This document shows, piece by piece, positions 14,101 through 53,400 of a stretch of DNA of 64,000 nucleotides. The notes beneath the pieces were generated by a model that did not search any database, was not told the origin of the DNA, and saw only the letters and a program-made list of their open reading frames with translations. Source of the stretch: Lytechinus pictus (Eukaryota). The stretch is taken from the NCBI RefSeq assembly GCF_037042905.1, contig NC_087251.1:26166001-26230000 (forward strand), given 5' to 3'. Position 1 is the stretch's first letter. Each line of letters starts with the position of its first letter. The position numbers were made by a program, and so were the translations under genes.

Positions 14101-15725
14101 ATATTGAATTTTTTTTAAAGTACATTTGATCAGAATCCTTCAAAGTGTCTGTGAATAAAAAATTAGCAGTTTAGAGGCCTTATTTAGTTAATTAGAGCAA
14201 ATCTTTGATTTTACGCATAAATTAGCATAATTAATTAATTATGAGATTTTTCGGAAAATTTGATCCTACAGTCTTGGAGATTATGCCATGGGTAATGCAC
14301 GTGCCAATTTTCGTCGCGATCGCGCGGTCGACGGCCGAGATCATAGGGGGGCTGAATCAGCCCCCCCCAGTCTTCTTAGGCATCAAAATAGCCCAGTCTA
14401 TTTAGGGTTATTATTATTATTTTATTCGGCACTTCATCAAAAACAAAACAGCATGTACAATGCAAAATTGAGAAAAAATACAAAAATACAAATAATTTTT
14501 AGACCCTTTCTCCCCCAACCAGGTAGCCTGGGTAGGGAATAGGTCAACTTAATGGCCATGGCCCACAGGCCTTCCCTCCCACTAAGTTGATGATTGGTGT
14601 AACTTAAGTTCAACTTGTTTACTTTCTATTATCAGCAGTGATGAGGATAGGGAAGAAAACTGCAGTTCCCGAGCTCAAGAGTCAAACAGTAGATGGTATC
14701 TACAGGCTGGTCTGTACATCAAGAACACAGGACTACTCCCTTACAGGTAGGTGTTGGTTAGTCCTACCCCTAACATCACATAGTTAATAAATTCCACCCA
14801 CCTTCCTCAGTGATAAACATGTTCTTATGCTAAGAAAAGCTCCATCTATAGCACTATTTTCCCCTCATGATTGAGATCTCTGATTCATTCAATTGACCCT
14901 GGTTATACAGAATCACCTTACCTAATGCACCTTATCCAGCATTTCTTGTTTCCCTTTTGAAAGATGTTTATTTTTATGACCTTCAGAAATTTGGCTGAAT
15001 ACAATTGTAGTCTGATTTAAATTTCTTCAAAAAAGAGTTTTTATTAATAAAGAAGGTTATTGAACACAACATTAAACAGATATATTGCGCTATGCAAACA
15101 CTGAATCATAATCATCTGGATGGTGTCTACAATCTATAAATTAACACTATTTTCAATATAATTATTATTACACATTCCCATTTATCAAAGAAATGTTATG
15201 AATTAATCTGTACTTCTCTAAAGTACAGATTTATTTGGAATATTTGCTTAAATATCTGGTGGTATGAAAGGATTATAATATTAGTAATGATAAATAGCTT
15301 GTCTGGAATTGCTGCTTATTGTCTATGGTATAATGTAGAGACCTTCCTAAATATGCAGGTAGAGGGTAAATGTAAAAACAATTCATCCAAATTTAATTTC
15401 TTTTAAATGATATTCTTTATTTTGTCACATTGAACCCTTAATAAAATTATTTTGATTTTTCCAAACTGTATCTGTGTTTATCAATATCGCAATTTAACCA
15501 CTTGCCAATTTATTTATTGATCACTGTATGAATACTTACTATAATTTCATTGTGTATGAGCATGTAATTGGATATTTCTCTCAATGTAATTCCATCTTCC
15601 CTACAGTAACTATTGACGGCAACGAGTTATCGCGGGTGAAATTTTTCCAGCTGTCTGCACAGTGGCAGACGCACGTGAAGCTCTTCCCTGTCGCACTGTT
15701 CGGTCACGTGGAAGCGCCCTGCTAG
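4995..15725 (+). CDS. PACS: Phosphofurin acidic cluster sorting protein (PACS1/PACS2 family), C-terminal part; 5' exons lie upstream of the window
   Basis: Exons 4995-5101, 7671-7825, 8485-8595, 9925-10073, 10808-10859, 12567-12693, 13110-13345, 14639-14746 and 15607-15725 are all GT-AG with consistent phases (1164 nt, ending in TAG). Peptides such as [48 protein letters not shown] and [19 protein letters not shown] match the PACS C-terminal region as I recall it. Confidence 0.93.
5995..6123. mobile_element. Small Harbinger-like MITE (relatives near 11815-11934, 24270-24416, 49592-49719, 58319-58497, 58916-59355)
   Basis: TIR GGGCCCGTAACACAAAG...CTTTGTGTTACGGGGCC flanked by CAG. Confidence 0.65.
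6926..7479. mobile_element. Kolobok-like palindromic MITE
   Basis: TTAA-AGG...CCT-TTAA; long imperfect TIRs starting AGGACAAGTCCACCCCAA. Confidence 0.8.
7671..7825 (+). CDS. PACS: PACS exon (CNQNARV...YIVPT)
   Basis: ctttag acceptor, gttggt donor; PACS-like PIKIGVCG...[12 protein letters not shown]. Confidence 0.92.
8485..8595 (+). CDS. PACS: PACS exon ([16 protein letters not shown]...)
   Basis: ttacag acceptor, gtaaga donor, phase 1 to 1. Confidence 0.92.
8641..8944. mobile_element. Harbinger-like MITE, diverged copy of the ~290-bp family
   Basis: GGCCTGTATTCTGAA...TTCAGAATACGGGC, 3-bp TSD ATT. Confidence 0.7.
9925..10073 (+). CDS. PACS: PACS exon (...[10 protein letters not shown]...QKFVPFIS)
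   Basis: gacag acceptor, gtgagt donor. Confidence 0.92.
10121..10410. mobile_element. Harbinger-like MITE (~290-bp family)
   Basis: 3-bp TSD ACT; highly similar to 22181-22474. Confidence 0.78.
10808..10859 (+). CDS. PACS: PACS small exon ([17 protein letters not shown])
   Basis: ttttcag acceptor, gtgaga donor; supplies the phase 0 to 1 change needed between its neighbours. Confidence 0.75.
12262..12528 (-). mobile_element. tRNA-derived SINE
   Basis: Reverse-complement homologue of 52404-52683, with A and B boxes. Confidence 0.8.
12567..12693 (+). CDS. PACS: PACS exon (Ser/Pro-rich, SSSPPS...TPPPSPAV)
   Basis: ttacag acceptor, gtatgt donor; PACS-like TPPxSP motif. Confidence 0.88.
13110..13345 (+). 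CDS. PACS: PACS exon (...LDLQVEYW...SLKTAFRSL...VVTKEKNKK)
   Basis: cctag acceptor followed by tandem CAGs, gtaggt donor; characteristic motifs. Confidence 0.92.
13656..14407 (-). mobile_element. piggyBac-like MITE, inverted copy of 3512-4265
   Basis: TTAA-CCCT...AGGG-TTAT; spurious ORFs 4004..4333(+) and 13485..13916(-) translate to near-identical peptides. Confidence 0.8.
14639..14746 (+). CDS. PACS: PACS exon (...[15 protein letters not shown]...)
   Basis: atcagcag acceptor (alternative start 14636), gtaggt donor. Confidence 0.9.
15607..15725 (+). CDS. PACS: PACS terminal coding exon (VTIDGNEL...[19 protein letters not shown]...APC*)
   Basis: ctacag acceptor; conserved C-terminal motif; TAG at 15723-15725. 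Confidence 0.95.
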
Positions 15726-26332: not shown

Positions 26333-26405
26333 ATGGATTCCTACTACAAATTTAGCTTGCAGATCCCAAGATACATTATCGCTTTAAGCTCTGAATGGTT
26401 AGCAG
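26333..26405 (+). CDS. MTBP: MTBP putative first coding exon (MDSYYKFSLQIPRYIIALSSEWLA)
   Basis: ATG at 26333 and strong CAG|gtaagt donor; phase 1 matches the 38424 acceptor; RYIIAL resembles the MTBP N-terminal RYLLLV. Confidence 0.7.
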
Positions 26406-29400
26406 GTAAGTCTTTCCTTTTTTTTATGTTGGATATTATTTTCCAAAATAAAAAGCGATCCACAAAACAAATGCAGTTTTTCAGCCTCGGTCCCGCACGT
26501 TCACTTTCCGGTTTGATGCGAACAAAAATTTATCACTCAAAACACCAGTCACTATTAAACTAAAGTAAAGCCTAACGGAAGCAGGTAAAATCTGAGTGGT
26601 AGTCATTGATACAATCTTGCTTTGTAAAGCTGAGCTGTTCCATGATAGGTACCGTATGGGCACTAGTATTCAACCCGGCATAAATCAAAGATTTTGACAA
26701 ATTCCCCCAAATATTTAGAAATAGGGAATTTATCTTAATTTCATACCTTTGTTTGTTATTTCCAGTGTAATCTGTTGTCGGTATTTTCTTTATCAATCTG
26801 TCGACTGTATGCGCGGAGGATCGAATTATGCGGCGATGACCTTTTGCACTGAAATGCACTAGTATTCAACCTAGTGATGATAGATGGCTAATTTCAAAGT
26901 GGTTTAGATTGCTAAATTAGATCTAGATTTATGTAAGTCTCTGGCTTTGATTAATTCCCTGTTTGGTCTCATCTAAATTGGTCTAGTCCATAGTCGGATG
27001 GGACAAGGGCAGATTGAAAGACGGGGCCATCTTTCATCGCTAGGTTGAATACTTGTGCCGACGGATTGAATACTAGTGCCAAAAACCATCTCCGTATAAT
27101 TCGATCGCCCGCGCACACAGTCGACGGGTTGAAGAAAAAAATAACGGAAAAAGAATAACCAGCATTTGCTCTTGGAAATAAGACGGGTCTGAAATTCAGG
27201 TAAATTCTATATTTCTATATATTTGAGGAAACTCTCCAAACGGGTTGAATACTAGTGCCCTTACGGTATGACAAAATAATTTAGACTAGAGTAAGCTGCC
27301 CAGGCGCAGGCCGGCAGAAGTTTTTTCATTGCAATATTTTTTTTTAATTAAAAATGTCTTTTCACAAAATGAAATTTGCATCAATGTTTGTTGAATATAT
27401 ATTTTTTATTGCAATGTGTATTTCCTCCTATCTCAAAAATCTTGAAAAGTATCACTATGTTTTACGCAGCCATTCAACAGCATTGCGCATCACGGCTAAA
27501 AGTCGATGCGTACGAGAGCTGCTGAATTTGCGTCGCATAGCATGCAATATGCAACTCGGAAGTTGCAGTGGCCATTCTCCCCTACATTCAATCGGACACC
27601 ATGTGGAATGGAGGCCTACCGCTAGCATTCCATTAACTTGATTTCTTTGCAAATTCAATGCGGTAGAGCTTTTCAGTTTTTTCTTTTTTCATTGGTCATT
27701 TTGAAGGTATGATCCTAAATTTGCAAAAATGTTCACAAACTCAGAACAAAAGAATTAATTAAAGGAAAGATTAAGTGAGGGAGCAGCGTAAGATCAAGTT
27801 TTCATATTCAGAATGTAAATTTGGCCATTTAAATATATGCACTGGCAATTAAAGACTACTTCACACAACTTTACTTCATTTTGTTTATTTAAGAAAATAT
27901 GACTTCAATAAAAATGAAGATGTTTGGCAAGAGTTCCATATGCACCCCCCACTAAAATTGAAAATAAAATCATGGAGAAGGTTCAGAATAATATATCTAG
28001 CCATAATATAGAACATATACAGGCCTCTACAAAAAAATATTTCGTCACTTGCCCTGTCGGGCAAGTGATGAAAAAAATTGCTTGCCTGATAGATAAAACT
28101 GCTTGCCCTATTTGTTTTATAATTATTTTTATTGACGGCACTACTCTTATTTTTAAAGGTCATACAAAATAACAACAATTGAGAATCATGTACAGTATAA
28201 AAGAACACACATTTAAAAGTTTATTTTCAGCAACGTAGGCCTGAGTCATTACGTTTATTTTGATTTTTTTTTCGCTATTTATGAATGGGGCTTAATTTAA
28301 GGTTTAAAAAAAACTTCACCAAAAGTTGCTAAAATTTCATATTTTGCATCTTTAAATCCACGAAATGGTTATCTGTTTGCCATATTTCCTTAGAATTGTT
28401 TTGATTTAGTTGGAAACTATAAAGAAAGCCAGTGAAAAATATTCAGCTCTTTATTGACTCTGAAGAAGATTGTTTTATGATGTTTAGAAAAAAAAGAATC
28501 AAAAGTGGAGTGGCTAAAATTTCACATTTTGCATCTTTAAATCCATGAAATGGTCATTTATTTTCCATATTTCCATGATATTTTTTAATTAGTTGGAAAC
28601 TATCAAGAAAATTAAGAATATTCACCTCTCTCTTGTCTTTTCTTCATCATTTTATGATGTTACACTCGGTCAATATATTTTTTTATTGTAGGCCCGCATG
28701 TAGACTTTCATGGTTTTTTTTCCATGGTGTTGCAGCATTGATCGTTGATCATATCGTTTGATCGTTTTACACTTGGTCAACATGAAAGTCTACATGTGGG
28801 CAAGCCTTGAAATAAGCACCTGTGAGCCGGGGGCAATTTTTTTTGAAAATTTTTTACAGGAACCGGGGGCAATTAAAAAAATATATATAACGGTGAACAA
28901 CACCGCAAATTTGTTTATAGTAAGCGCAGCTCCTGCAATTTTTTAATTAGTACATGAATAGCATATGCTAAGTATTAGGCTTATTCAAACATTTAAGAAA
29001 TCAGATTTAAATGTTTAAGTGTGTTTGGACACCCTCACTCCACATCCCCTTTACAACCACACACACATGGGCTTATTTATTTTTCATCTTTAATGAACCA
29101 CGATCAATGAACCCCCCCCCAAAAAAAAAAAAAAATCTAAATAAATGAATAAAATAAAAATTAAAAAAAAGAGAGAGAGATGGAGAAAGATAGAATTCAG
29201 ATCAAATAATGATAAATTTAGAAAAAATAAATAATTTATAAGGTTTTTTTTCATGGTTAGAATGTGGGTGTGGGTGAGTGTTTGTGTGTGATTGTGACTG
29301 TGAGGTGCACTTGGATTGCATATAAATTATGTTAAAGAAATGAAGAAATGAAATCAATATCTAACTCAGTCTATTCAAATTCCAGCACATAGCCACAGGC

Positions 29401-32400
29401 TAGCTATGTGCATGTATTGTAGGTTGAATCAGGGACAACTCGGACCACGGGACAACTCGGACTGTGGGCCGAGTTGTCCCACCCGTTTCGTGATTTTTTT
29501 CTCCACAAATTTTCGTCTATTTTTCCGTCATTTCGAAATTTCTTGTAAAGATTTTCTAGAGATATGGTCTGATGGTAATGTTCTTCACTTTCTATTACTT
29601 TTTTTTTGCTGAAATAAATAAAAAAGTGTAATTTTAGGCGTTTTTTTTGACAGCTCGCGATTCCCATAGGCGCGCGTGTATTAACTGTGTAGGTGCTCGG
29701 CTCGGCCCCGCTCAACAACTGACTTGATTATGTGATCATTTCTCCTCAAGTTACCACTTTTATCGCAGAAGATGGACTTTCTTGTATTCCATTAACTCCA
29801 TTTTCTCATCAAAAGGATAAAATTTGGAGTATTTGCAAGATTTTCTTAAAGTTTTTCACCTTTTCTCTCTGGTCGTAAGAAGCGAACAACCGATGAACGG
29901 TCCGCTGCTCTTCATCGCAATTCTACGTAGCTCGGCCGCCTAAACTGGCGGGGTGGGATTCAGCCCGAATCCCCAATGGAAGTGGGCGTGCACAGTCAAA
30001 GAGCTGAGCTTGACTGAGTGAGAGAGTGAACTACAGCTTGAAGCTTGGCAGTGTCGTATAGGCTCTGCCTTTTTTTTGTGTAAATATATATATATTTTTT
30101 TTATTTTTTCTATATTGATTTTCCCTGGTGTAGAGCTTTAAGATTGTAATAATTTAATATGCTTTAATTTCTTTGACTGAGTGTGACTGTGGTGTGGATG
30201 TTTGAGTCGCACAAAAAATACTTTTACGTGGGTGGGGGCTCGGGACGGTTCACTCCTGCCCCCGAAATGTGAACAATATTTGCGATGTCGCTGTGTTGGC
30301 ATGCCGGGCTGAGGGTAGCCATCAATAATTTTTTTTTTTGGGGGGGGGTTAATTTTTAATCAAATTGATTATTTTTAGGCCTATTAACTTTGTTTACATT
30401 TTATTTTTATTTTTTATATTGAGTTTCCCTGGTGTAGAGAGCTGAGTTTTAAGTTGCAATAATCAATATGCTTCAATTTCTTTGACTCTTGAGTGTGACT
30501 GTGGTGTGGATTTTTGAGTTGCACAAAAAATACTTTTATGTGGGTGGGGGCTCGGGGCGATTTCACTCCTGCCCCCGAAATGTGAAAAAATATTCGGGGT
30601 GTAGCTGTGTGGGCATGCTGGGCCGTGCTGAGGGTAGCCATCAATAAAAAAATGTTTCATTGGGGCTTACTTTTTTAATGGAACTATAATTATTTTTAGG
30701 CCTATTTAATTTTTATATAAATTTCATTTTTATATTGAGTTTCCCTGGTGTAGAGAGCCGAGTTTTGGAGATGACGAGAGGGACGAGGAGGTGAGGGATG
30801 AGGATCTTTGATGAGAGGGGTGCATGGAGATGGTGAGAGGGACGAGGATGTGAGGGATGGGGATGATCATGGGAGGAAATCCCAGGGGGGGACGTGTCCC
30901 CCTACCAAAATAGTAAGGGGGACACAATATCAAATGTCCACCCTACTATTTTTCTTCTTGAATAATGGAGAACAAATACATCATTCACAATCGAAATAAT
31001 ACATGTATTTAGGACTAAATGACCCTATATTTTTGAAAACCCTTTTTTTTTCTTGTCAAGTTATTGAATTTTAAAGTTAAACAATATTTTGTGAAAACAG
31101 TCGTCATGAATATTCATTAGGTGGGCTGATGATGTCACATCCCCACTTGTTCTTTTGTATTTTATTATATGAAATTAAGGTTTATTCAAATGTTTTCCTC
31201 CAAGAACTAGAAAAATTGGATTGACAACTGATTTAGTGCATTAGATATTTATTGCTGCAACTTATTTCATTATAAGGGAGACATATTATTCACACAAGTA
31301 TGAAATAATGAAGAAAAAAAAATGATTTATGTAATAACATAAGAAAACGGAAAGTGGGGATGTGACATCATCAGCCCACCTTATGAATATTCATGACGAC
31401 TGTTTTTACAAAATATTGCTAAACTTTAAACTTCAATAACTTTATTATTTGTTAACCGATTTTGATGAATTGACCGAATTGTCGGCATTTTGCTCAGTGA
31501 ATTCTACTCTATGTATTTAGATATAAATATTTTCAGCCCGGACCATCCCTTTAACCGAAGGTTGTAAGTTTCTGAAATGACAGCATAACTTACATGTAGA
31601 AAGTATTTGGACATAGTTCATGAAACTTGGACAATCAAGTATCACTGAACATCCTGCAGCAAGTTTCAGGTCACATTATCAAGGTCAAAGGTCATTCAAG
31701 GTCAATGAACTTTGGCCATGTGGGGGTATTTGTTGAATAACTAATTTTGAATAACTATTTTATAGTAGTTTTCAAAGTCAGCACTGCTCCCGGGCACTGC
31801 TGCTATATTGAATCGTGTAATGCAGGTGAGACTGCCAGAGACGTTCCACTTGTATATGTACAGGGCTCTCTTTTAACTCAGTTTTTTTTTTTATTGAAGA
31901 GACCACTCTTTCTCTAGAAAACAGAAATAATAAATAAATCATTTAAAGGGATGCTCCGGGATGAAAATATTTATATATAAATAGATATAGTAACATCACA
32001 TATTAAAGTGCTTATTTCATAAAAATCTGATAACAAATAGGGGGGTTATTAAATTGAACGTTTAAAAATTAATCTAATTTCATATAATAAAATATAAAGA
32101 AAAAGTGAGGATATGACATCATGAGCTTGCTTATTGAATATCCATGAAGACACGCCAGACCTGTTTCACCAGAATAATGCAAACCATTCTTTAAAATGCA
32201 GCGATAATTTTGTTATTCCTTATCTGATTTTGATCAAATTTTCATTGTTTTCTTTGTTCAAATCATATCATTTTCAGCCTGGAGTACCCCATTATGACTT
32301 ATCTATATAACTCATTAATATTGCCACAATTTGGTCCAGTTGTTCAAATTATCTAGTAAATACAATATATTTTATTATTAGAAAAGCTTGTCATTAGAGT

Positions 32401-35400
32401 CATTGAGAAGGTGATCATAGAGCTAATGCTTGTGTCAACAATTTATCAACTACGTGACCTGCAACTTGCATAATTTATGTAAATATATACCAAAAGTCAA
32501 CAATTTTCTAACTGGTACACCTTAAATGATTACATCCATAATTATGATACCAGGAACTAGAAAATGTAGATTGGAAAACAACACTAGGGCAACTTAGTGT
32601 TAGATACAGATTTCAGTTTTCTAGAATGGGTGATATTCTATTCAAAGAAAAACAAAAACAACATCACTCCAAAGGAACTGCAAAAATTATTTGATAAAAA
32701 CAAAACCCTCTTCATAGTTGCTCTTTGCAATATCGTATTGACCACCCTTCTCCTGTTTTTAAAACCCAGACAAGCATGATTTGTTGCTACCCCCCCCCCC
32801 CTTCCATGTACCTGTCATTTCTTTGTATTTTCCCTCTTTTTCTTTGTTTTTTCTATTGATCGATGTATCAGTGTTTAGTATTGTTGTCTTTTTTTATACC
32901 AGTAATAGAATATAAATTTAATTGAAATGAGAGTGATGAACATAATGAAAAAGGGAGACAATGATAAGATAAGAATGGAGATAAAATATTACAATTTACA
33001 GAATATAACATATACATGTATATTTCTATTTATTCAAAGTTCACAATTCATTTTTATTCAGGTTTACATTTAAAATTTAAACAAGTTAATTAAGTGATGC
33101 ATTTTGGAACAATACTAAATTAAATACATTTTATATTGAATAAACAATAATTGGTAAAAATACAAAACACAAAACTTCTAACTCTATTCTTTCCTCCTGT
33201 AAAAAATTACAAACTAAATGAAATGGACATTAGTTCCAGTGGCAAATCGGGGGGGGGGGGGGCACATTCCGCCCCCCCCCCCCCCCCTTGAGAGGTACTC
33301 AAAAGGCAACTGCTTGTCAAATTTTTCCTGGGAAAAATTATGATTTGGTAGTGAAGACCTTTTGTCAAAAAATTCCTATACAAAATGCCCTCCGGCCCTG
33401 TAGGGAAATTTTGGATCCGCCCTTGATTATATTTCAAATGGGAATAAGACCGAGTGGCCCTAAAACTTGATTGAAAAAAATATTCACAACTGCAGGGCAA
33501 GGCTTCAGTCTCCAAGCTCACGACTGTGCAAGTACATCCACTTCCATTGGCAATTCCGGCTGAATTCCACCCTGGCAGCCTGACATCCACCCTTACCAAG
33601 AAATAAAATTAAAGAAAGTAAATCAGGGAAAAACAAGGAATGGCACAATGAATTACATCAATTTATTTTAAATCCTGTAAAAAATAAGTAATCATTAATT
33701 CAATTAAAAATTAAGCCCCAAATAAAACATTTTTTTATTGATGGCTACCCTCAGCCTGGCATGCCCACACAGATACACCTAGAACATTTTTACATTTCGG
33801 GGGCAGGAGTGAAAATGCTCCGAGCCCCACATAAGTATTTTTTCCGTGACTCAAATTTCCACACCACAAAGTCAAAGAAATTGAAGCAGTAGCATACGCA
33901 GGATTTTTTAAAAGGGAGGGGGTTCAAGCTGAATGAAATGTTGATCAACAAAGGAAAAAAAAGTTCTTTACCACCAATTTTAGGTCGTTTCCTCCCAAAA
34001 AAATGACAAGCAAACAAACAAACCCCCCCAAAAAAAATTAGGGGGGCCGGGGAATGGGTATAAAAAATTTTTTAGGGTGATTGAACGCCTGTAATCACCC
34101 CCTACGTACGCCACCAAATTGAAGCATAATTATTGCAACTTAAATCTCAGCTCTACACCAGCGAAACTCAGTATAAAAAAAAAAGGATATAAAAAATAGA
34201 CCTAAAAATAATTAATTTAATTAAAAATAAAGCCCCCAAATGAACTTTTTTATTGATGGCTACCCTCATCCCGGCATGCCCACACAGCTACACCCCAAAC
34301 ATTTTTTCACATTTCGGGGGCAGGAGTGAAATCGCCCCGAGCCCCCACCCACGTTAAAGTATATTTTGTGCGACTCAAACATCCATACCACAGTCACACT
34401 CAGAGTCAAAAAAATTGAAGCATATTAATTATTGCAACTTAAAGGAAAATGAAACTCTTGGAGCAAGTTAGCTTTTGTGAAAGCAGAAAAATCAAAGAAT
34501 AAGATCAACAAAAGTTTGAGTAAAATAGGACTAGCAATAGAAGAGTTATGAGCATTTGAATGTCGAGATCACTAATGCTATGGAGATCCTCCCATTGGCA
34601 ATGCGACCAAGATCTATGATGTCACAGTTGAACAACTCTCCCCTTTTGGACACTGAAAATATACCCCAAAACATCTCTTTCTGCTCATTCTAATCATATG
34701 ACAAACGATTCATCAATGATATAATGTTGTGAAACCTCTGTACTTGTCCTCTCATAAAGAGAACACCTCACTTTGTGATAGACTCTATAAAAGTGAGAAT
34801 ATAAGTGAAATAAGTACTAAAGTAATGAGCGAGTTGTACGTGTGTGACATCACAGATCTTGGTCGCATTGCCAATGGGAGGATCTACATGGCATTAGTGA
34901 TCTCAATATTCAAATGCTCATAACTTTCTTATTATTCATTCAATCTTCCTCAAACTTTCAACAATATGTTTCTTTGATTTTTTTCTTTGATATGGATTCA
35001 GCTGGTTTCAAGGGTTTCATTCTCCCTTAAACTCAATATTAAAAAAAAAAAAAAAAAAAAAAAATGTAAAGGCCTAAAAGTAATCAATTTGATTAAAAAT
35101 TAACCCCCCCCCCAAAAAAAAAAAAAAATTATGGCTACCCTCAGCCCGGCATGCCAACACAGCTACACCACGAATATTTTTTCACATTTCGGGGGCAGGA
35201 GTGAAATCGCCCCGAGCCCCCACCCACGTTAAAGTATATTTTGTGCGACTCGAACATCCATACCACAGTCACACTCAGAGTCAAAGAAATTGAAGCATAT
35301 TAATTATTGCAACTTAAACTCAATATAAAAAAAATTTAAAAAAATAAAAAAATATATATAAAGGCCTAAAAGTAATCAATTTTATTAAAAAATTAAGCCC

Positions 35401-38400
35401 CCAAAATATTTTTTTTTTATTGATGGCTACCCTCAGCCCGGCATGCCAACACATTTACAACGCGAATATTTTTTCACATTTCGGGGGCAGGAGTGAAATC
35501 GCCCCGAGCCCCCACCCACGTAAAAGTATTTTTTGTGCGACTCAAACATCCACACCACAGTCACACTCAGTCAAAGAAATTAAAGCATATTAAATTATTA
35601 CAATCTTAAAGCTCTACACCAGGGAAAATCAATATAGAAAAAATAAAAAAATATATGTATATGTTTACACAAAAAAAAGGCAGAGCCTATACGACACTGC
35701 CAAGCTTCAAGCTGTAGTTCACTCTCTCACTCAGTCAAGCTCAGCTCTTTGACTGTGCACGCCCACTTCCATTGGGGATTCGGGCTGAATCCCACCCCGC
35801 CAGTTTAGGCGGCCGAGCTACGTAGAATTGCGATGAAGAGCAGCGGACCGTTCATCGGTTGTTCGCTTCTTACGACCAGAGAGAAAAGGTGAAAAACTTT
35901 AAGAAAATCGTACAAATACTCCAAATTGTATCCTTTTGATGAGAAAATGGAGTTAATGGAATACAAGAAAGTCCATCTTCTGCGATAAAAGTGGTAACTT
36001 GAGGAGAAATGATCACAAAATCAAGTCAGTTGTTGAGCGGGGCCGAGCCGAGCACCTACACAGTTAATACACGCGCGCCTATGGGAATCGCGAGCTGTCG
36101 AAAAACGCCTAAAATTACACTTTTTTATTTATTTCAGCAAAAAAAAAGTAATAGAAAGTGAAGAACATTACCATCAGACCATATCTCTAGAAAATCTTTA
36201 CAAGAAATTTCGAAATGACGGAAAAATAGACGCAAATTTGTGAAAAAAAAATATCGTAATGGGTGGGACAACTCGGCCCGCGGTCCGAGATGTCCCGTGG
36301 TCCGAGTTGTCCAGACCCCTTGTAGGTTCATGTACCTTAAGTTTTTCACAAGTTATTTGAAAACGCAGATCTCCACAGAAAATGCCTTTCATTCATGGAG
36401 AGTCTAAATTTGGTGAAAATGTATTCATTAATAACTTGAATATTCATCACAATGAAGAAATCATAAAGTTTTTTGACAGTTTTCAAAAATTAACATGAAA
36501 TCTAAACTCTATCTGAAATGGAAAATCACCATCACTTAGGCCATTACTGATAGAATTCTCACCCAGAGCTCTGGCAGAGAACATGAGCTCAAACTGGCTA
36601 GCTCTAACACCACACTCAAGTGCACGGCGTCCTCCTATTTTTTTTTTAGATGGAGCCTTGTTTGATAATTTATTGTCTGATATTTACCCCTCTCCAAGAA
36701 AAAAATTAAAAAGCTACAATTCACAACTATAAGCTAAGTGATTTTGGATTATTAAGGCTCCGTTTTGACAAGCAAAGTCGGCGACTGTGAGGATAAAAGA
36801 CTCGCACATCGTATGTGCTGTGAACAGGGATTTATCTCCTGTGCAATTCGAATTACTATATCGCAGAATGGTGATATCCCAACTGGAAATGTGTGCATTA
36901 GAAATTGAACATGATGAAGTATGGGAAAACCGCTACCGGAAGCACGCACACATGTATTACCAAAAAAAAAAGACACACGTAGCTCACTTTTTATGGTACA
37001 GAAAAAAGACGCACTTACCTGTTTATCGTAAATTGAAAGTTACTTGATTTTGGCTTTTCAGATATTTAAATTACATGTATGATATGGCTTGACTGCTCAC
37101 TCAAGGCGGGCGCAATTACCTGGAAAATATTTGCGCCCGGTCGTCAAAATTTTGATGATTTTGGGGCTTTATGGGCGCAATTGATGGCTTTATGAGCGCG
37201 AATTTGCGCTCAGCGCCCGCTTATTTCAAGGCTTGCATGTGGGACCACAATAATAAAAAGCATTTACGAGTGTAACATCATAAATCAGAGTAAAGAAAGA
37301 GCTGAATATTCTTCATTTTTTCAGTAGTTTCCAACTAAATCAAAACAATTTCAAGGTAATATGGAAAATAGATGGCCATTTCATGGATTTTTGCAAAATG
37401 TGAAATTTTAGCCACTTTTGGTGGGGTTTTTTTGGTGTGCATCGCAAATTGCTCAAGTAGCGCATGCGCAGTCATTGCACACGTAGAACGTAAGATGCGA
37501 TGGCACGGTTTTTCGAACGAGGTACCTGGCGATAAATTATTGGTAATTGGCGCTGATTTTACATCAGTTTCCACTGGTTTGACATAATCTGAGAGATAGT
37601 TGTGATTATCCAAAAGATATTGAAATTTAGAGGGTCTACTGATATTTTATTTCCAAAACAACCACTTGCCCGATCGGGCAATTGACTTTGAGAAATGCTT
37701 GCCCGCACGTCATTTTCACTTGCCTCGGGCAAGCGGGTTTGTAGCGCCCTGCACATATAATGGGGGAGTGGAAATACATACCAAAATATGGCTTTATTCC
37801 GTCAAATTTCAAGCAGGATCTAGTGCGTGTAATTGTCCATAAACATCGGTTTATTTAGTCAGTAAAGGGTCTGTGAGTCTTGACTAGTCAAACTATTGGC
37901 TGATAATCGTAAAAATACCCCTTCCGGTATCGGCGCTTCTCGCTAGCATAGCGGGAAGAGGTCTTGACTGCAGATAAAACAAGGTGAGTTCGAGTCCCAA
38001 CTAAGGTAAGCAACAGTAAAAAAATGATAGAAAAATCTTAGGTGAACGAACCGGAAGTCTCAACAATCTTTTGTTATTTTTGGTGGGGGGTGCATATGGA
38101 ACTCTTTCCAGATGTTTGAACAGGCCTCCCACCTCTCGAACATGTGTTTGGATATATCGAGCAGCAGAAGTGCATTAGAATTCAAATCAAATATTTGGCT
38201 GATTCAGTGTGATAATAATAATAATATCATGTGTGAACTTCACTTTCTGAATTTTTAGTTGTGATAAAAAATAACTTTTTTCTCTTGCTTTTCTGGCAAA
38301 AAAATGCTTCTCACTTCACTACTGCCATCTTCATCACTGCATGGTGTGGTTCACTGATGCTGGAATAGCTAAAGTCAAATTTCATAAGATTGATTTTGTT

Positions 38401-41400
38401 TTATTTTTTCCTCAAATCTCTAGCTGAAGATGTACAATTATTCCAGCACCTGGCCAAGTCCTTGTATACCAATGAGGAAAGAAGCAATCACTCACCTACA
38501 CCTGAGCATTCTGGGAGGACTACCAATGATTCTTCCTCTGGACCCGAATCAGTCAAACAGGCACCCATCGACAATGTGTGGATTAACATTGTCGTTCCTG
38601 AATATGGGGAGTCATCAGAACCAGGCGCTACAGACACCGTCTTTCATTCAGGATGGAGTAGGGTGCATGAAGAGGATGTTGAGGTCGATGATGACGGCCA
38701 GCAGGTTGTTTTTGCTGACATGAGAGAGAAGTTTGGGAAGGCGAGAAGTGACATGGAAAGTCTTTCAGTGACTAAAATGAGGTGAGGCTGCATCATGTTT
38801 GAATTGAATTTGAATGCAAAGGTTATAACAAGAACTCTGAAGCAATTACAATTAAAAAAAAGATATGAAGCTATTTTCTGTATACTAGTTTTCTTTCTTA
38901 TTTGTTGTTATAATAAAAAAATATAAACCACAATTCATTAAGAAACTGTTTTGATGAAACTGTCTTTATAAGTGTTTTTGTGACTAGTAATATGCATTTA
39001 TCGATGTACATATTTAAGTATTATATGCATTCATATTTTGTCAATATTATTTTTCATACAATGTTTGGACTATTGCAAATTTCTTTTAATGATAAAGGGA
39101 ATCTCAATCATTTAATACCATTTGTAATATTTTTTTCTCTCTCCTTGTCATCTTTGCAAAAGAGAGTACACAGGGATGGTAGCATCTAAACTGGACAAGA
39201 TTGCAGATGAACTCCCAGTTGGAGGTATGTATCTATGTTTGCAAGCACTTGTCAATATTACTTTGTACCAGTCAGTTGATTTCTGCCTATTATTTATTTT
39301 TAAATGATTGTCACTAATTTTATTATTGTTATTTTAATTACTATTTAAAGTACCAATGTCATCACAATATCATTGTTGCTTCTACCACATTTGTAATTGC
39401 TGTAATAATGGTAGAAGTAGCATCAAATCAATAAGAAAATTAAGCCATCTGTATAAATGTGACTCATCACATATCTGTTTGGTGCTGGCATGCTGTCCTG
39501 TCCTCTATGAAAAGATAACATGTTATGCAGTCGCTTATTCTTGTTGAGTGTCTGGGTTTACTAGTAGACCTGAGTTCCCTCATACATGTATTCAGGGTAT
39601 GAGCAGAAAACCACAATTATTTTTGTTTATGTCTAGGTTATCTCCTTGATGTTGTTTGGCTCATGCCCACCAGTACTGACTTTCCCATCCTGGAGCGTCC
39701 GGATGCTTTCCTCTTCTCTGTGCTGCGACGCCTAGAGGTGTGGCACCACGCCCGCATCACCATCATGCTAGGGAAGGGTATGGAGGGGCAAGAGCACCCC
39801 TCCCTGACCCACTGGAAGACGTTCATAGAGAGCAAGGTGGTGGAGTTGAGGTCGTCAGATGGCAAGGATGCCAACGTGGATGACATCTTGTCAGAATCAG
39901 GCTCTCTGGCTTGGCAAGGCCAGGTCAAGTACATATCAAGTCGAGTAAGTTGTGTTGATTCCGAGAGCAAAATTGCATTAGACAGGGGTGTGAGAGTTCA
40001 GATTTTTAGCTGATTTCAGATTTTTTTTTTTCAGCTTAATTTCAGCTTATTTTTGGTGTTCCTCTGTACAAAGAGTATGGGAGCTCTTTTTATTTCAGAC
40101 TTTTTCTTGTGACCACTCACACCCCAGATTAGAGGGCCTTCAGATAGTTAAAAAGAATACCCCTCTTACATAATAAATCTTGTATAAGTCAACTCGTCCA
40201 TGTTTTGAAGCAAAGACTATTTTATCCAATAAAATATTCACCTTTACAACTTTAACAAGTTGAATAAACTAACTGTATGTGGTCCTTCAACATACCACTT
40301 TTACAAAATGTGTATTGTGCTGTAATATATTGTATCACACACACAAAGATATAACCCCCCCAAAAAAAAAAAAAAATAATAATAATAATAATAATGATAA
40401 TAATAATAATAATCTATAAATAAATAAAAATAGAATAAAAATTATTTTCCTGCAAATTATTACTTCACTCAGAGTTAATTTCTTCTTCTACTCATGACAA
40501 ATACATGTATGTACTTGAATGAGTCCTTTGAATTTTGTTTTGTTTTTATGAATATGTGATGTATTTGTTTGTAGGGTACTGCTTTTCCTCCATGGCAAGG
40601 GTTTAGTCTACATCGTCTTGCTGATGACAGCAATAGATCAGAGCCTTTCATTGAGATTCTTAATCCTAGTGCTAATTCTCAGCAAGACGTCGCTGGAAGC
40701 CAGCAATCGATGGATGATTCTTTTGTCTCGATATCAAATCATGAATTAAAGGTAAGCTTGATATATTATGATTACTTGTACTTTGCATTTTATGATTAGT
40801 TCAGCTTGTATGTATCACAGGAATTCTGTGGCTGCATCGCTGCCTGATCCTAAAATGCATTTAGATTAAATTTGATGAACATATATATTTTATATTATAT
40901 ATTTCAAAGTATTTTTCCTTCCTGGTTGCATTTTCCGTTTTAAAGTCTATGTATCAGAAATGAATGAGTAATATTGATAAAGAATGTGAATAGAATATAG
41001 AAATTTGTTGGTTTTTGTAGAATGTAGTGGATTTTTGCATCTCAATTTTGTGCTGATCATTGAATAAGTGATGCCATAAACATGGAGCATAATGTTTATT
41101 TGTATGATTTAACAGGCTCTGCATCAAAGCATGGTCAGTCTTTCATAATCTTTAACCTCTCGTCTGATTACTCCTCTTTACTCTATCACTATTACCAATT
41201 AAGCATGAATATCTCAATCAAATGACCATAACTCTATTTTTATTTAATGATTGAAAATGCATTTGTAATTCCTTACTGTCTCATTTTATTTTCTTCTGAA
41301 CAGTCTAAGTATGTTGTGAATGAAACACTTGAGTTCATCCATCTTGCCAATCTACATGAGATCCCATCCTGGTTTATCCTACCTGGAAAGTTTGAACTGT

Positions 41401-44400
41401 ATCCTTTTTATGCTGAGTATTCATTAGAATACAGTCCAACTTAATATACTTTTCTATTTTCTTCTGCTCTTATAATTGATTTATCAGGGTGAACCTCCCC
41501 TTAAAAGGCATTACATAATTACTTAACTTAATATATGATGACCAACTTGAATGGATCCTAAGTTTTAATTTCTCTGTTTTTATTTTGTTAATTTCTTTAC
41601 AAATGTTGTCTATAGATCCATGGTCATTTAGAACTTATTCAGTTATTTAGTGAGAACAGCTGTCGCAACATTAATTGCATTTTTACACATTCTTGATCAC
41701 GTCAATTAGGATTGAATTGTAAGGTAATGTAAGGTGGTGATTTTTTTACCTGATTGCTAAGAAAGCATGAATGCTTGTAAGCAAGCAACCAGAGGACCAA
41801 TGGCGTAAGGTCCTCTCTGAGGGACCTGGTAATTATGATTTAAATGCCTTACCAATGGGCGCTAGTGCACCAAGTGGGGATCAAACCCAGGTCACTGGAA
41901 TGCGAAACCCCCGCTCTACTGACTGAGCTGTCGCGCCTCCTCAGACAGCAGATGATTTTTTTCCATACAAAAACTAACTTGATTTATATCTGATGTTATT
42001 TATGCAATCAATGTTCAGCAGTTTAAACTCTCTTTCATTACTTGTGTGAAACTGATCACTCCATACTACATACATACCTCTAACCATTCCAATTTTGGCG
42101 GAATTATCCCGATTTTTCGACCTCCATTCCGAATTTTAAAACAAAAATTTTGATTTTTGGGTTAATCAATATAGTGTTGAAATTATTGAAACGGCTGTAT
42201 GATGCGACTAATGCATGCACGTCTGTAAGATTCGACAAACGCATAAACGACTGGAGCGCGCGGCTACGCAAATACGCTAGCTCCACTATATACACAGAGA
42301 GCGACTTTAAACGGTGTGCAAAAACTGCTATTACCACGGTCACATTTGCTCTACGGCGGCCGTACAGCGAGTCGAAAACAGCCGTTTTATTCATTTTTGT
42401 CTCGCCTGCATAGCAGAGCGAGACTATAGGCGCCGCTTTTCTGACGACGGCGGCGGCGGCGTCAACATCAAATCTTAACCTAAGGTTAAGTTTTTGAAAT
42501 TACATCATAACTTAAAAAGTGTATGGACCTAGTTCATGAAACTTGAACATAAGGTTAATCAAGTATTACTTAATATCCTGCCTGAGTTTCAGGTCACATG
42601 ATCAAGGTCAAAGGTCATTTAGGGTCAATGAACTTAGACCATGTTAGGAGAATTATTTTCAAAATCTTAACCGAAGGTTAAGTTTTTGAAATGACATCAT
42701 AACTTAGAAAGTATATGGACCTAGTTAATGAAACTTGGGCATAAGGTTGATCAAGTATTAGTGAACATCCTGCTCGAGTTTCAGGTCACGTGACCAAGGT
42801 CAAAGGTCATTTAGGGTCAATGAACTTTGGCCAAGTTGGGGGTATTTGTTGAATTACCATCATAACTTTGAAAATTTATGGATCTAGTTCATGAAACTTG
42901 GACATTAGGTTAATCAAGTATCACTGAATATCCTGTGAGAGTTTCAGGTAACATGAACTTGCTCAATGGTCATTTAAGGTCAATGAACTTTGGCCGTGTT
43001 GGGGGTATTTGTTAAATTACCATCCTAACTCTGAAAGTTTATGGATCTAGTTCATAAAACTTGGACATAAGAGTAATCAAGTATCACTGAGCATCCTGTA
43101 CGAGTTTCAGGTCACATGACCTTGGTCAAAGGTCATTAAAGGTCAATGAACTTTGGCCGTGTTAGGGGTATTTGTTGAATTACCATCCTAACTCTGAAAA
43201 TTTATGGATCTAGTTCATAAAACTTGGGATATAAGAGTAATCAAGTATCACTGAACATCCCCTGTGAGTTTCAGGTCACAAAACCAAGGTCAAAGGTCAG
43301 TTAAGGTCAATAAACTTAGGCCATGTTGGGGTAATTGTTGAATTGCCATCATAACTTTGAAAGTTTATGGATAGAGTGAATGAAATGTGGACATGGGTGT
43401 AGTTTACAAGTCTTAAGTCACCGTTCAAATGTCATTTATGGTCAATGAACATGGTATTATGTCATTATATGAATGGTGTTTTTGTGAATGATTATTTTAT
43501 AGTAGTTTTCAAAGTTAGCACTGCTGCTATATTAAATCGCGTAATGCAGGCGAGACTGCCAGAGGCGTTCCACTTGTTATTCAAACCACCTATATTTAGC
43601 TGGTACAAAAACTGTTAAAACGACTGTTTTTTACTCGCCGTACGGCTGTTGTAGAACAGATGTGACCGAGGTATAAGTGCGCAATTCCATTGCAAATGCA
43701 TGTGTAATAACAAGCGTACACACAACGGCCGCACTTAGGGCGCTACATTTTGAGGTGTTGTCGTATTCTTCATGTTTTTTATTATTTTTTCTATATTAGC
43801 GTTGACTTCTGGGAAAAAATGGCGGCTGACGTCGGCTAGCAAAAGTGCCAGTTTTTAGTGAGGACATGTTTTCATAATCCACAAACATCTGAAAAACCTT
43901 TAAAAATTCACTTTTTTAGACCTCTTGTTTCGTAACTACGATGTTAAGAATCACCGATGATGATATTTTTTACGCGAAATATGGTGATTTAGGTAAGAAA
44001 ATTTCACTTTTTATTTGAGGTCTTGCCCATGTCGCCGGATGATTTTGTAGTGTGAGAGTGAGTTAGTGAATGTGTAGTGTACATGTCTAGAGTGTGTTGG
44101 TGATTTCAGTGGTTGCTGAGTCTGCTGAACAGCTGCACACCAACCCCGGCCACGCACCAAGTTAAATCTATCCCTACGCAATTTTAACATTGATCTGTAC
44201 TTTATTTTTAGAATAGAATAATTGTCAAATTTTTGAGAAAGAAAGGAGATTATCAACTTCCGATCTCAAGTTGAGCCTTCGGAGCCGAACACCAAATCTA
44301 CTTGCTTCGCTTGCCTTAACTCCCGGCGCCTGCCAAGTTGCTGCGCCTTAGCCTCCCCGGCGCACCGCAAGTGCAGTGGTGGGTGCGGGTCGGGCGCATG

Positions 44401-47400: not shown

Positions 47401-50400
47401 TCTATCTGACTTTTGGGGTGTTTCATCATGCTGTTCATAAAGTTAATATTTACTTGACAAACGACTGGAATGTGAAGTGCTTGGATTCAAGACCATGGTT
47501 TCATTTCACTGTTTAATAAGGTCGGCCAGTTTTGTAATCATCTTTTGAAGATGTGATATTAACTTACACTGGAATATTATAAATTATAATTATCATGAGT
47601 ATATGATAATTTAAGCTAGTGTGATTAATGGCGAAAGAGATACTCACTTGGCTTGCATAAAGCTTCTAGTGTCTTTATAATCAGTGTCAATGATGTAAGA
47701 TTGCTTATCTACATATAATATATTTTTTATGCAGAGAAAATCCGCTCTGAAGGTCTTGAGATCAACGTGACACCATCTCTCCTCATCTTCCTCTTCAACT
47801 ACATGAGGAAGGTGTTCTATGAAGGGTACAGTATTGATGAGAACAGATCCAGCCCAGCAAATCAAAGGCCATCAACGGACACTCCAGAACAAAGACCGAC
47901 CCTTGAGGCAGAAAGTAGAAATGAAGAGGAAGCTATGGATGTTGAGAGGAGAGATGAGGGTGGTGTGGCGGAAGCTGAGAATGCAAGTGAGCCTAGACCA
48001 GCTAGGATAGACCTCAGGACCTTACCAACAGGTAGGTTTAGTTATGTCAGATTGGAGGTATCAAACAACAGCCATAAAAGATATCGAAGCCAGATAAGAA
48101 TGATAATAATATTGATAATCCGCAAAAACATAGCGCTTTATACATTGAATTACACCTCAAAACAATTTACAGGTTCATGTATATTATTACCCTGGTCATC
48201 ATATCCTGGCATGCCCCCTTCAGTGTATACACTCTCTCCACGTCATTCAAGCAGTAATGACTATTATGAAGCAATTCCTAGTCAAATGATTTGTTTGTAC
48301 TATGTATATGAAGCAACTCACTAATTTTCTTATGTGGTATTACCCTTGTTTCATAACATGTTTGTATATTCTCTATTAATTTTCTTTCTTCCTTCAAATC
48401 ATTCTGTAGAATTGACACAGAGTCCATCCCAATGGGTTGAGAGACAGGCCTTGCAGAATAGGGAATCGATTGCCAATCGTTTAAGAAGAATCCGATCAGA
48501 GGATCTAACCTTAGGAGGATTTGCTGTACCGTCCACAGACAGCAACAGTAAGTATTATATTGGTAGTATGCATACATCATGGTGTATTGGTTCAGGCTCC
48601 CATCTCTTAATCCAAGGGTTTTGGATTTGAATCCTATACCAGGCGTTTATTTCTTATAGCAAGAGATTTATCCATATTGTGTTGCACTCAACCCAGGGTC
48701 GTTTCATGAAGCTCTTTGTAAGTTACGCAGTGTGACTTTACCCATGACTGGTGTACCTATCTTGGAGTAAATGATATGCCCCAACATTTTTATTGATGTT
48801 GATTCACCTCTCAAGAATGATTAAATTTCTCTCTGATCTTAATATCACATGTTGGTTATTGGCTTTTTGGCCTCATCTGTTATGGTTGTATCCCATTTAC
48901 TTTACCCTTAGTTTGTCTGATAAATATATGGTCTAATTGCCCGGAAGCCTTTTTAAAAAGCATAAAACAAATCTTTTCAACTTGACTTCTGATTTAACCG
49001 AGAATGGTTTCCCATCCATAAATCATAAGTACAGTTGACAAGATTGATTTTTTACATTATTAAATTGTAGTTGAGTCTATCCTTGGATGAATCCGGATTG
49101 TATCAGTATCAGTTTGAAGTGATATTTATCTCGATATTTGTGGAACCAAGGTAAATTAGAAGAAATATGCCAATTTATGTTTTAGGGTCTTTTAGCGTAA
49201 TAGATATTGAAAGCCTTCACACATTGAAACATCATATGTCAATTTCATTCTTTTTTTCTCTCTCTCACCAGCAATCACCTTGAGTGCCAAAGAGTTCCGT
49301 AGTCATTTCAAACCCAACGGCCAGCCCAAGCGAGATGACCTGGTCATTGTCCCACCCTCTGGTGTCCGGCATAGTCCAAGGACGAGATCATCGGTAGCTG
49401 GTCATCATAACAACGGACCAACAGTCCAGGAACTGATGCAGACAGAGTTCTCAGATTCACTTAAACTCAAGTACCATGGTATCAGGTGAGTGTAAAAATT
49501 GGGGTTAATGGAATCTGTCAGTCATTTATTAGTACAAAGGTTTAAATCTGGATTTGCCCCAGTCAAACTGGGGTGGCAAGATTCACCTCAGAGGCCCGTT
49601 GCATAAAACTTTTGCCATAAAAAATCTGGCAAATAAACAACAACTCTGGCAAACAAAATTATGCCATTGAAATTTACACATTAAAAAACTCTGTCAAAAA
49701 GTTTTATGCAATAGGCCCCATATTTGCTGAAGTCACCCTTACCCCCTCCATTCTCTTTGCACAATTCATTGTATACTCGCTACTCTCCTCTTGCTTCACC
49801 TCTGTCTTCTTGGCTGTCCCCTCCTTGAACCACTCACCTCAAACTCAGAAGCTCTTATTAGGACATGCCATTCATCCTTCCATAGTACATTGCCCATACC
49901 AACTTACTAAAATTAATTGTTGAAAGATAATTTTATCATTTATCATTTTAAATTTATTATAGCTGTGTGCATCCAACACAAAAGCACTCAGTCCAACTTA
50001 GATTTATTCACATTAAGATGTGTTTTAAATTATATTTAGCCAGTGCATTTGAATATATTCACACTTACATATTGGTGTACTCATTTATCTGATAGATACT
50101 GCAAAGAGAAGCCTGGTTCTCAAAGCATAGATCAGAAGATGATACATCTCCAGCAGCAATGCATCCAACATGTAAAAGTACTCTGTCAAACTTAGATTTA
50201 TTAACACTAAGTTGTATTTACAATGATATGTATTCAGTGCAATATTCACACTGACAAATAATCATGTTTATCCATTTATTTCATAGTTACTGCAAAGAGA
50301 AGCCCGATTCTCAAAGTATAGACCAGAAGATGATGCGTCTTCAGCAGCGATGCGTCCGTCAAGAGATGTCTTGTACGTTCACCTCTCACCATCATTCTAC

Positions 50401-53400
50401 TCTGGCTATCAGGACCAAGAGGAAACACTCAGAATCACCAAGCACACAACAGGTAGGTCTGACTACTGCAGTGTTGCAAGGTTGAGTCGCTGACAAGCGA
50501 AACAGGTAGTACATGAAATTAATTTTGTATAAAAGGAATTGTTTACTTTGTTGGGCATTTATTTTGATAAATTATTGAACTTTTTTTTTTGGGGGGGGGG
50601 GGTTATATCCAAGTGTTCATTTGGGTAAATACCACAGGTACAGACAGGTGACACATAGTAGATCAGTTGATCACTCCTCCCCCCCCCCCCCTGCCCCAAA
50701 ATGGTTTTGCTGCTCAAAGTTATTATAGTAGTAAATACTAAGCCAGAAATAAATAAAAAAATCCAATACATTTGAATTATGAAGATATCTTTCTTAAAAT
50801 ACCAACACTTATAAAATTGTTAGTTGAGAGTCTCAATCTCATATTTTACCATTGTAAATGTTCCTGAAAAAGAATTTGTCAGGTGATTCAGTCCTTAATG
50901 CAGATCATTTTATTTTTTAATCTAGTTTTATTTATTTTTCTTCATCCTTTTTATGCTCAACACTATTGAAGTAATATCTCATTTCTTTGCTATTTTCTGT
51001 TTCTTGTTTAAATATGCACCTTCCAAACATGGGCTTATTTGAAGTTTAGTGCAACAGAGAGCTTAACATCATAATTTCTACCACTTGAAAGAATTTGAAT
51101 TATATATAAATCTTGATAACTATTTATCCATATTGTCATGCCAAACAGTCAAAGACAAGAAAGCTCTCTCCATCTGCCAAAAAGAAGTCCTCCCAAAGCA
51201 CTCCTAGGAAAAGAATCATGCCTGGTAGGACAGCTAAAACACCTCAGAAGGTTGTGGGTTCAACGCCTAAGAATGGCGCATCCACACCCAGATCAAGAAA
51301 GAAAAGGGCTCGGATATCAACCTCAGGGGGGCTTACTCCAAAGAGGTAAGTAAATATTGTTATGTGGTGAACATCCATGGTATATCAAACAGAACTGTCA
51401 GAACAATTGAGAGGTGTGGGTGATGAATATTGGGCTCTTTCATCAGTTTCATGCATTAGTTTCATGACGAACCAGCAGTAACTGTTCCCAAATTTATTGC
51501 CCTTTCAGCTTTCTTTGTGTCTCGGTCTTCCCTGGTTTGGGAAATGTGCAATGCTGATTTATTCAGATATTAGATCTAAATAGTTTACTTAATTCATGGA
51601 GAATAAGGAATCAGAGGTAAGTCATTAATCAACATAAGAAATATGTTGTTAATAATGAGATTTGTAAACCATATTTTTTTAGTTCCCTTTTGTTTTGATT
51701 TGGTTTTTTTATCGCTTAAAGAGGAAACGTGTATACTGCAGATTTCATTTTGAAATAATGTTATTCCATTCTATCACTGTAAATGTGTAGAGTAGAAAAG
51801 TAGAAACGTAAAAGGAAAAATGAAAATACAAAAGGACAAGTAAGAAATATTTTATTTCCAAGATAAACATACAATCTTGCGCATTCAATGCACTTCTGAA
51901 TTCTTGCTATACATGCTTAAATCATACTTTAAGAGCGTAAAGGCCTTAAAGTGGATTGTCACTTGCTGTAACTTTCGTTTGATGTAATTTTTCCCAGACT
52001 TAGGCGCTCCACCCCTGTCAAATCAACCAAACCTGAAGAGATGACCTCTCCTCGGCGGTCAGCCAGGAAGCTTGCCAAGGATCTCCATCCTGCCACCACC
52101 AACACCACCATCTCCTCCTTCACCTCTCCATCTACCTCCTCCACCCACCAACCCTCATCATCATCAGCTGCATCATCATCGACACCATCTAAGAGAACTC
52201 AGAAGCATGCCAAAGTTACTGTCAAGAGCGCGGAATCCAAGAAAGCAAGGAGGTCCTCAGTGTCGAGATCAGAGAAGCATAAAATGGTAAGAAATTCTGC
52301 ACGAATCTTTTCCCTCTGTCTTTCGCAAAGTAAAAACGTTTTTTATCATTCAAATCTAAATGCAAAAGAAATGAGTGTGTGCCATCATCACTTGCCTACT
52401 GTCGGCGCGTCGTGGTCTATTGGTTCTGACTCGGGCCTTCCAAACAGACGATCGTGGGTTCAAATCCTAGCCATGGCGTGTTTTCCTTCAGCAAGAAATT
52501 TATCCTCACTGTGCTGCACTTGACCCAGGTGAAGTGAATGGGTACCCGGCAGGATTAATTCCTTGAATGCACGAGCGCTGACAGGCAGCTCGAGCTATAG
52601 CTGGGGTAATAATAATAACAATGGGCCTCGGAACAGATGTTTCGAGATAGATGGCGCTATACAAATGCCTATTATTATCATTACTGACTGGGATTTGCCA
52701 ATAACTGTTTCTGTGAAAATAAGCAGAGCTCAGAGATGCCATAAATTTCTTATTTTACATCAGATTTTGATCAAAATTTCAGTGCTATTCTCAACTAAAT
52801 TTTGAATATTGGTTCATTTCAACTTATTGTTGGGGTGGACTTGACATTTATTGACCTTTAAAAAGTGGCATATCATTATTAAACATTTACCACACACACA
52901 CATTCCATTGCCTTATATGTTCATTGCATTCATTGTAATTTTTGTCTTTCATTTCTTTAAACCATTTTTATAGAAATTACGTTCCATTGTTGAGGAGACC
53001 CTAGCAGCCAAGGGGATTGATTCTAGTCATGTGTGCTTTAAACCTTGTGTTACAAGACTATATACACAAACTAAGATGTTTGTAAAGGTAAGATAGGACA
53101 TTTTTAATGATTACATGTTCAGAGTTAAAAGCTAATGTTGGCATTGGAAGCAGTGTTGGTGTTATGGCAATTTTGCACCAGCCTCTATACCAGACCTGAA
53201 ATTGATCCGGTTCAAGAATCAATGTCACACGGTGTTGAGATGTCAGTAAAGTGATTAGTATAACTTCATTTTACCTATGTTCAATGCTGTAGTCAGAATC
53301 ATAAGCATTGTTTTTCACTCTCAACACCAATACCTACACTGAACCTAAAATTTCCAAAGGGATTAGGTGCTTCTGATATTTATTAAAAGATGAGAGGACA

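Follow-up and report, generated by a model that had tools for sequence, protein, structure and literature searches.

Five nested insertions in one MTBP intron

In Lytechinus pictus, a nest of five transposon insertions, each lying within the one before, sits in the first coding-region intron of MTBP. The nest is unusually tidy, five deep and built from known kinds of element, and we consider it very probable that it arose by five cut-and-paste insertions, moved in trans, that landed in turn within this one intron. The window, by which we mean the whole stretch of 64,000 nucleotides that was analysed (G000:C7:26166001-26230000), comes from a genome of 812 Mb. Its relevant features are given below, with strand for those of the gene.

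26333..26405, plus strand: MTBP coding exon 1, from tblastn and a peptide walk; GT donor at 26406
26406..38423, plus strand: MTBP coding-region intron 1, roughly 12.0 kb with GT..AG borders, from protein mapping and RNA reads
38424..38781, plus strand: MTBP coding exon 2, from protein mapping and RNA reads
27926..38109 (pieces 27926-28019 and 37760-38109): layer 1, 444-bp MITE with GG termini, Merlin-like by its ends; TSD 27918-27925 / 38110-38117
28020..37751 (pieces 28020-28800 and 37244-37751): layer 2, 1.29-kb non-autonomous element with CAGG termini, hAT-like by its ends; 8-bp TSD 28012-28019 / 37752-37759
28801..37235 (pieces 28801-29425 and 36329-37235): layer 3, 1.53-kb non-autonomous element with a 17-bp perfect TIR, hAT-like by its ends; 8-bp TSD 28793-28800 / 37236-37243
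29426..36319: layer 4, a foldback measuring 6.3 kb once the TTAA MITE is left out, putatively Mutator/Tm1-like; 9-bp TSD 29417-29425 / 36320-36328
30766..33690: interior of the foldback, a mosaic of older repeat pieces; no coding frame found
33887..34116: 230-bp MITE carried by the foldback; 8-bp TSD 33879-33886 and 34117-34124
34443..35026: layer 5, 584-bp MITE with RR..YY ends, putatively Kolobok-type; TTAA TSD 34439-34442 and 35027-35030

The identity of the host gene rests on homologues: translation of the frame at 39660-39950 agrees at 100% with a Lytechinus pictus protein named by its source as MDM2-binding protein-like. A genome search with the Pfam model MTBP_N came back blank and is uninformative, since its controls were blank too. 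Splicing of exon 1 to exon 2 was seen in a raw RNA run carrying the same species label, where 36 reads at 38422 run on into the end of exon 1; RNA depth is zero in the bins at 38184-38389 within the intron, in an animal that possibly lacked the nested allele. If "intron 1" is taken to mean the first one within the coding region, the first-pass annotation was right that the nest fills most of it, since it occupies 85% of the roughly 12.0 kb.

All six TIR/TSD pairs reported in that annotation were recovered in place. The outermost, 27926-38109, carries the 8-bp TSD AGATGTTT on both sides and a 27-bp TIR in which 26 of the 27 terminal bases are complementary. Next comes 28020-37751, flanked by AACATATA and CACATATA, with 12/14 end bases complementary, followed by 28801-37235, which has CATGTGGG on both sides and is complementary at 17/17 positions. 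The pair 29426-36319 is flanked on both sides by TTGTAGGTT; its outer 7 bases are unlike between the two ends, and inside them complementarity between the arms is about 98% for the first 770 nt and 90% when 1.3 kb is considered. Further in, TTAA stands on both sides of 34443-35026 and AATTGAAG on both sides of 33887-34116, the ends of which are imperfect. Emptied of their contents, layers 1 to 3 measure 444, 1289 and 1532 bp, in agreement with the sizes of about 0.45, 1.3 and 1.5 kb initially proposed. Seven of the 70 frames scanned fall in the nest, and these seven gave zero Pfam matches.

Empty sites and order of insertion

A check set in advance asked for uninterrupted copies of the emptied layers 1 to 3 elsewhere in the genome. 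For each outer layer, one half was matched to the genome, the best matches were taken as sister copies, and their other half was then inspected. Such copies were found for all three layers, each with a single target site. All nine layer-1 copies run through the layer-2 site as a single alignment, seven of them with exactly one copy of the target, and one of the nine has a small indel there. The layer-3 site appears as a single CATGTGGG in 11/11 layer-2 copies, and the layer-4 site as a single 9-mer in 10/11 layer-3 copies, the remaining one being locally rearranged. The layers thus show the TIRs, TSDs, dispersed uninterrupted copies and single targets that define nested non-autonomous TIR transposons, and the nest of five insertions is real at this locus.

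That the nest might be an artefact of assembling repeats is, in our judgment, scarcely credible. No spanning read was seen, the reads examined covering 36330-39400 only, but at every junction the duplicated 4-9 bases are exactly those that occur once in the empty copies, and a collapse or chimeric join would not make four duplications in register.

The order of insertion follows from containment together with the single-copy targets in empty sister copies. Successive insertion of elements from different superfamilies, and the relative chronology drawn from it in the first-pass annotation, are thereby supported for layers 1 to 4 and the TTAA element, with superfamily labels taken from ends and TSDs. 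Mean substitution distance to the fetched sister copies was 5.7% (n = 9), 4.3% (n = 11) and 3.4% (n = 11) for layers 1 to 3, 2.0% and 2.6% for the left and right arms (n = 12) and 1.1% for the interior (n = 8) of layer 4, and 1.2% (n = 3) for layer 5, all of these being rough lower values that are biased low because sister copies are best matches. The distance falls inward, in agreement with containment. Measured instead to the majority base, the distances of layers 1 to 5 were 2.5, 1.8, 2.0, 0.6-1.8 (1.8% for the right foldback arm) and 0.9%, a measure by which layers 2 and 3 are not separable (1.8% vs 2.0%).

In the history that we favor, each non-autonomous element would have been mobilised in trans by a transposase encoded elsewhere, in the order layer 1, layer 2, layer 3, foldback and Kolobok-type MITE. 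The nest would be tolerated because it is spliced out and keeps clear of the splice sites, by 1.5 kb at the donor and 0.3 kb at the acceptor, and it may have grown concentrically because every insert widens the neutral target for the next one. No new mechanism is required. Earlier papers describe nested insertion as a record of activity order in the TinT approach (PMC3014933) and nested inserts in over a third of the coding MULEs found in maize and in rice (PMC3903597). Both concern the same element-in-element chance insertion, whereas the present case has five short DNA transposon layers of four apparent superfamilies in an echinoderm intron.

None of the five layers departs by more than about 2.5% from the majority sequence of its family. 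The nest offers a clean worked chronology of five recently active sea urchin DNA transposon families. Since all layers are young, stages of the nest may still segregate and could possibly serve as ordered markers at MTBP. Our literature search found no description of this locus or these families, which may already be named in Repbase. In a sister species (organism B), the families of layers 1 to 3 are abundant in both sequencing runs. Two DNA contigs from this species are anchored on exon 2, and their match to the window ends at 38242, 133 bp before the nest; one of them continues for 632 letters beyond that point, with no layer-1 piece among the pieces listed, which are a minority of all pieces.

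Superfamily assignment of the layers

The labels of all five layers are provisional ones, derived from termini and TSDs. Full-length copies of layer 1 (444-468 bp) made up 5/9 of those fetched, and its TSD is a perfect 8 bp at this locus and in 3/6 other copies with both ends. Merlin elements are marked by 5'-GG termini, a TIR of at least 24 bp and an 8-9-bp TSD (PMC8101967). Layer 1 has all three, and its GG ends and 8-bp TSD suggest that it is Merlin-like, a placement made by ends only.

The TIR of layer 2 starts with CAGG and that of layer 3 with CAAG. The layer-2 TSD is perfect in 3/8 copies (one of them within a TA run), one more matching at 7/8 bases, and the layer-3 TSD is a perfect 8 bp in 7/8 other copies with both ends located. 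A CA(G) start is a mark of hAT elements, and P elements also give TSDs of 7-8 bp, so that hAT-like is put forward tentatively, as the likeliest label for both layers. Non-autonomous hAT/Buster elements have a short TIR and an 8-bp TSD (PMC12637253), and layers 2 and 3, placed by ends only, resemble them in both respects.

Layer 5 is 97-99% identical to all 39 of its non-self top matches, and its ends read AG..CY in the window and in 3/3 fetched copies. PiggyBac elements combine a TTAA TSD with CC..GG termini, and this family was rejected for layer 5, the ends of which are of the RR..YY type. Kolobok elements are recognized by a TTAA TSD with 5'-RR..YY-3' termini (PMC9587614); layer 5 has both, and it is probably Kolobok-type, being placed by ends only.

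A foldback element that arrived with its cargo

Layer 4 has asymmetric 7-bp ends, followed by 17-bp terminal repeats, then by a unique arm portion of about 670 bp and arm modules of about 290 bp. A genome-wide search with one end of the foldback found 79 termini, of which 63 are exact and 16 differ by one mismatch, compared to 0 for the control. In the six copies with both ends, the TSD is a perfect 9 bp in two (the window and C10); three others have 8-9 bp with an end ambiguity of one to three bases, and in the sixth the TSD is unclear. The TU elements of sea urchins are foldback elements as well and may be of similar build.

Long modular TIRs, tandem sub-repeats, asymmetric 7-bp ends and a 9-bp TSD characterize the Tm1/Phantom group of Mutator/Foldback elements, and layer 4 has each of them, so that its ends and TSD point to a Mutator/Tm1-like element. 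Tm1 of root-knot nematodes is a close match to its anatomy, sharing 7-bp terminal motifs that are asymmetric, lie outside the inverted repeat and are followed by GGA, short tandem sub-repeats in the TIR, a TSD of mostly 9 bp and non-autonomous copies holding nested insertions (PMC3169594). Unlike Tm1, layer 4 has arms of 1-2 kb, modules of about 290 bp and MITE-derived cargo (PMC3169594), and a Phantom-type transposase was looked for within its ends and not found. Tetris (PMC4079207) and Galileo (PMC3573991) share with it long modular TIRs, a variable middle, growth of the TIR by recruitment of internal sequence and chimeric copies; the Tetris paper mentions foldbacks of sea urchins (PMC4079207). 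Galileo differs in belonging to the P superfamily, with 7-bp flanks (PMC3573991).

The MULE transposase domain PF10551 had 17 matches in the genome, none adjoining the 79 foldback termini, in a search that intron-split or diverged partners could have escaped, and the foldback interiors that were read held zero transposase frames. The long frames in two larger foldback copies are taken as inserted LINEs: the one in L058 is an inserted LINE, and the one in L057, without a Pfam match, was read by us as a LINE.

Outside 34444-35025, each base of layer 4 is matched at 90% identity or more in a set of 19 loci that belong to 12 other foldback copies. The exception corresponds to layer 5, which is private to this foldback copy. 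Pieces of the interior are 92-99% identical to other foldback copies and about 80-87% identical to free-standing relatives. Apart from the TTAA MITE, the content of the foldback is thus cargo common to the family, and the element arrived preloaded with older MITE pieces.

This bears on the 230-bp MITE at 33887-34116, which the first-pass annotation had placed in a later inner layer. Both of its junctions are kept in 19 of 39 non-self matches at 88-96% identity (two of the 19 being the arms of one copy); three more non-self matches are partial, and 17 are free-standing relatives at 73-85%. Because other matches carry both junctions, a later insertion at this locus is ruled out and the MITE came in with the foldback, having inserted a single time in an ancestor of that element and then been copied along. 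The rule that inner means younger therefore breaks where an element carries cargo. Three fetched foldback copies appear to be without the 230-bp MITE.

Foldback copies vary in module number and interior order. By our reading, the interior is oriented one way relative to the ends in five copies and the opposite way in seven. One copy has 1980-bp arms that are 98.4% alike, with the 230-bp MITE on both. This variation of arms and interior resembles the TIR dynamics of Galileo (PMC3573991).

Chance, targeting and mobility

An insertion hotspot had been proposed to account for the depth of the nest. Elsewhere in the genome, 4/22 other layer-2 or layer-3 copies hold a TIR element in the half unused for selection, five further copies of layers 1 to 3 break off, and two other foldback copies hold LINEs (one by our reading). 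A time-ordered null, crude in that it takes 4-9 events in 15.6 kb and lets 453 first-look candidates stand in for copy number, gave 0.001-0.026 depth-5 chains per layer-1 copy and an expectation of 0.45-11.6 such chains when the layer-1 family is counted by itself; for five insertions placed in this intron, the probability that all are concentric is P = 0.012. By this rough null, the nest lies in the tail but is about what chance yields in a transposon-rich genome. Since such chains are expected and 4/22 other copies are nested, a hotspot is unnecessary. A chromatin-feedback model for clustered insertion has been described (PMC12709442).

A narrower form of targeting, in which the foldback transposase favors a short stretch of layer-3-family elements beside a TACATGTA-like palindrome and nesting is partly directed, appears improbable to us, although it has some points in its favor. 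We read 300 bp of flank for all 79 foldback termini. Two lie in hosts of the layer-3 family, and their 9-mer targets adjoin in the host alignment, a pairing that uniform targeting does not predict. Assuming 600-2000 copies of the host family, its chance in a 40-bp window comes to 0.002-0.008 by a hand estimate. The second foldback copy (C2:41.09-41.10 Mb) sits in a layer-3 relative about 75-82% identical, and the two insertions are independent, since their TSDs differ and their end polarity is opposite. By our reading, the second host has at that site an 8-bp repeat around an 18-bp filler, like an older footprint. In addition, ACATGT occurs within 40 nt of 7/79 termini, compared to 0-2 occurrences per window in six windows that lie further out. 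Against this, the pair is single and was noticed post hoc, the other 77 termini lie away from that site, 0/11 other layer-3 copies have an element there, and target base bias is weak (A at -2 in 41/79; T at -7 and at -6 in 32/79 each). The motif, too, was picked post hoc, with three of its seven cases on one duplicated flank, and site bias says nothing about layers 1 to 3. Of the termini beyond the pair, one matches layer 3 weakly at another place, and another is 127 bp away from a layer-1 relative.

A modest site preference of the foldback may exist. The broader proposal is that the foldback prefers one site in a hAT-like MITE family and acts as a shuttle for older MITEs, which it carries between its arms, inverting and duplicating them, so that deep nests arise partly by transposon-into-transposon targeting. 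As a whole we judge it unlikely: the shuttle role is shown by the copies described above, and the targeting derives from one pair among 79 insertions. If the preference were true, it would provide a case, in an animal, of a foldback that targets a different family of transposons.

Returning to serial insertion as the preferred account, the finished nest might still have moved, or might still move, as one 10.2-kb unit between its outer TIRs, an idea to which we give very little credence. The outer ends of layer 1 agree with the family ends, and some foldback termini have the same flank at several loci (L120/L123/L125 and L110/L127), indicating that carriage in larger units or segmental duplication occurs in this genome. 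However, queries with the left and right junction series gave no non-self match that reached more than about 15 bases past any of the junctions (0/39 non-self matches among the best 40 per side), and a 0.44-kb MITE grown 23-fold would be a poor substrate, given that in a hAT assay, a different superfamily, activity dropped sharply between 5.1 and 8.5 kb (PMC12637253). The suggestion that the whole composite could travel as cargo finds no support for the outer composite, of which no second copy was seen among the best 40 matches per side and which bears no sign of having moved, and it holds one level further in, where the foldback composite plainly has moved.

Reciprocal nesting of the foldback and relatives of its host

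At a second locus, G000:C2:41093900-41100300 (L060 and L036), a relative of layer 3, the hAT-like host of the window's foldback element, also hosts a foldback copy. The target there is the 9-mer adjoining the one that the window foldback occupies within layer 3, and at this target site the layer-3 relative carries an 8-bp repeat flanking 18 bp of filler. The opposite nesting was found at L057:4800-5800, where a foldback copy hosts a layer-3 relative of the L060/L036 kind.

The foldback copy at L057 also contains an apparent truncated LINE fragment. Another copy (L058, G000:C11:19980900-19988000) hosts a LINE at L058:713-5687, with open frames of 292 and 1,033 amino acids that match reverse transcriptase and endonuclease.

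Several foldback termini on different contigs were found to have common flanks, namely, L120, L123, and L125 (98 to 100%) and L110 and L127 (92%). These common flanks could reflect either segmental duplication or transport within a larger element.

MTBP gene model and other repeats in the window

The 909-amino-acid MTBP protein model P0004 closely matches the window, with its start falling within coding exon 2 (38424-38781, + strand). The model lacks the first 123 residues, yet the exon 1-exon 2 junction is present in RNA reads (window 26333-38781). Further downstream, an MTBP exon is partly duplicated in tandem (50097-50168 and 50285-50452; 75% at the protein level).

A later MTBP intron contains a 163/192-bp tandem array (42470-43577), which is about 80% similar to a piece of the foldback cargo (31551-31853). 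The 5' part of the nest-bearing intron, outside the nest, holds a diverged palindromic element (26650-27268; arms 68% identical). Elsewhere in the window, two segments of about 770 bp in inverted orientation (3508-4269 and 13652-14411; 84%) enclose a frame with a PACS-1 match (13072-13389); they are possibly an older foldback or one repeat present in two copies.
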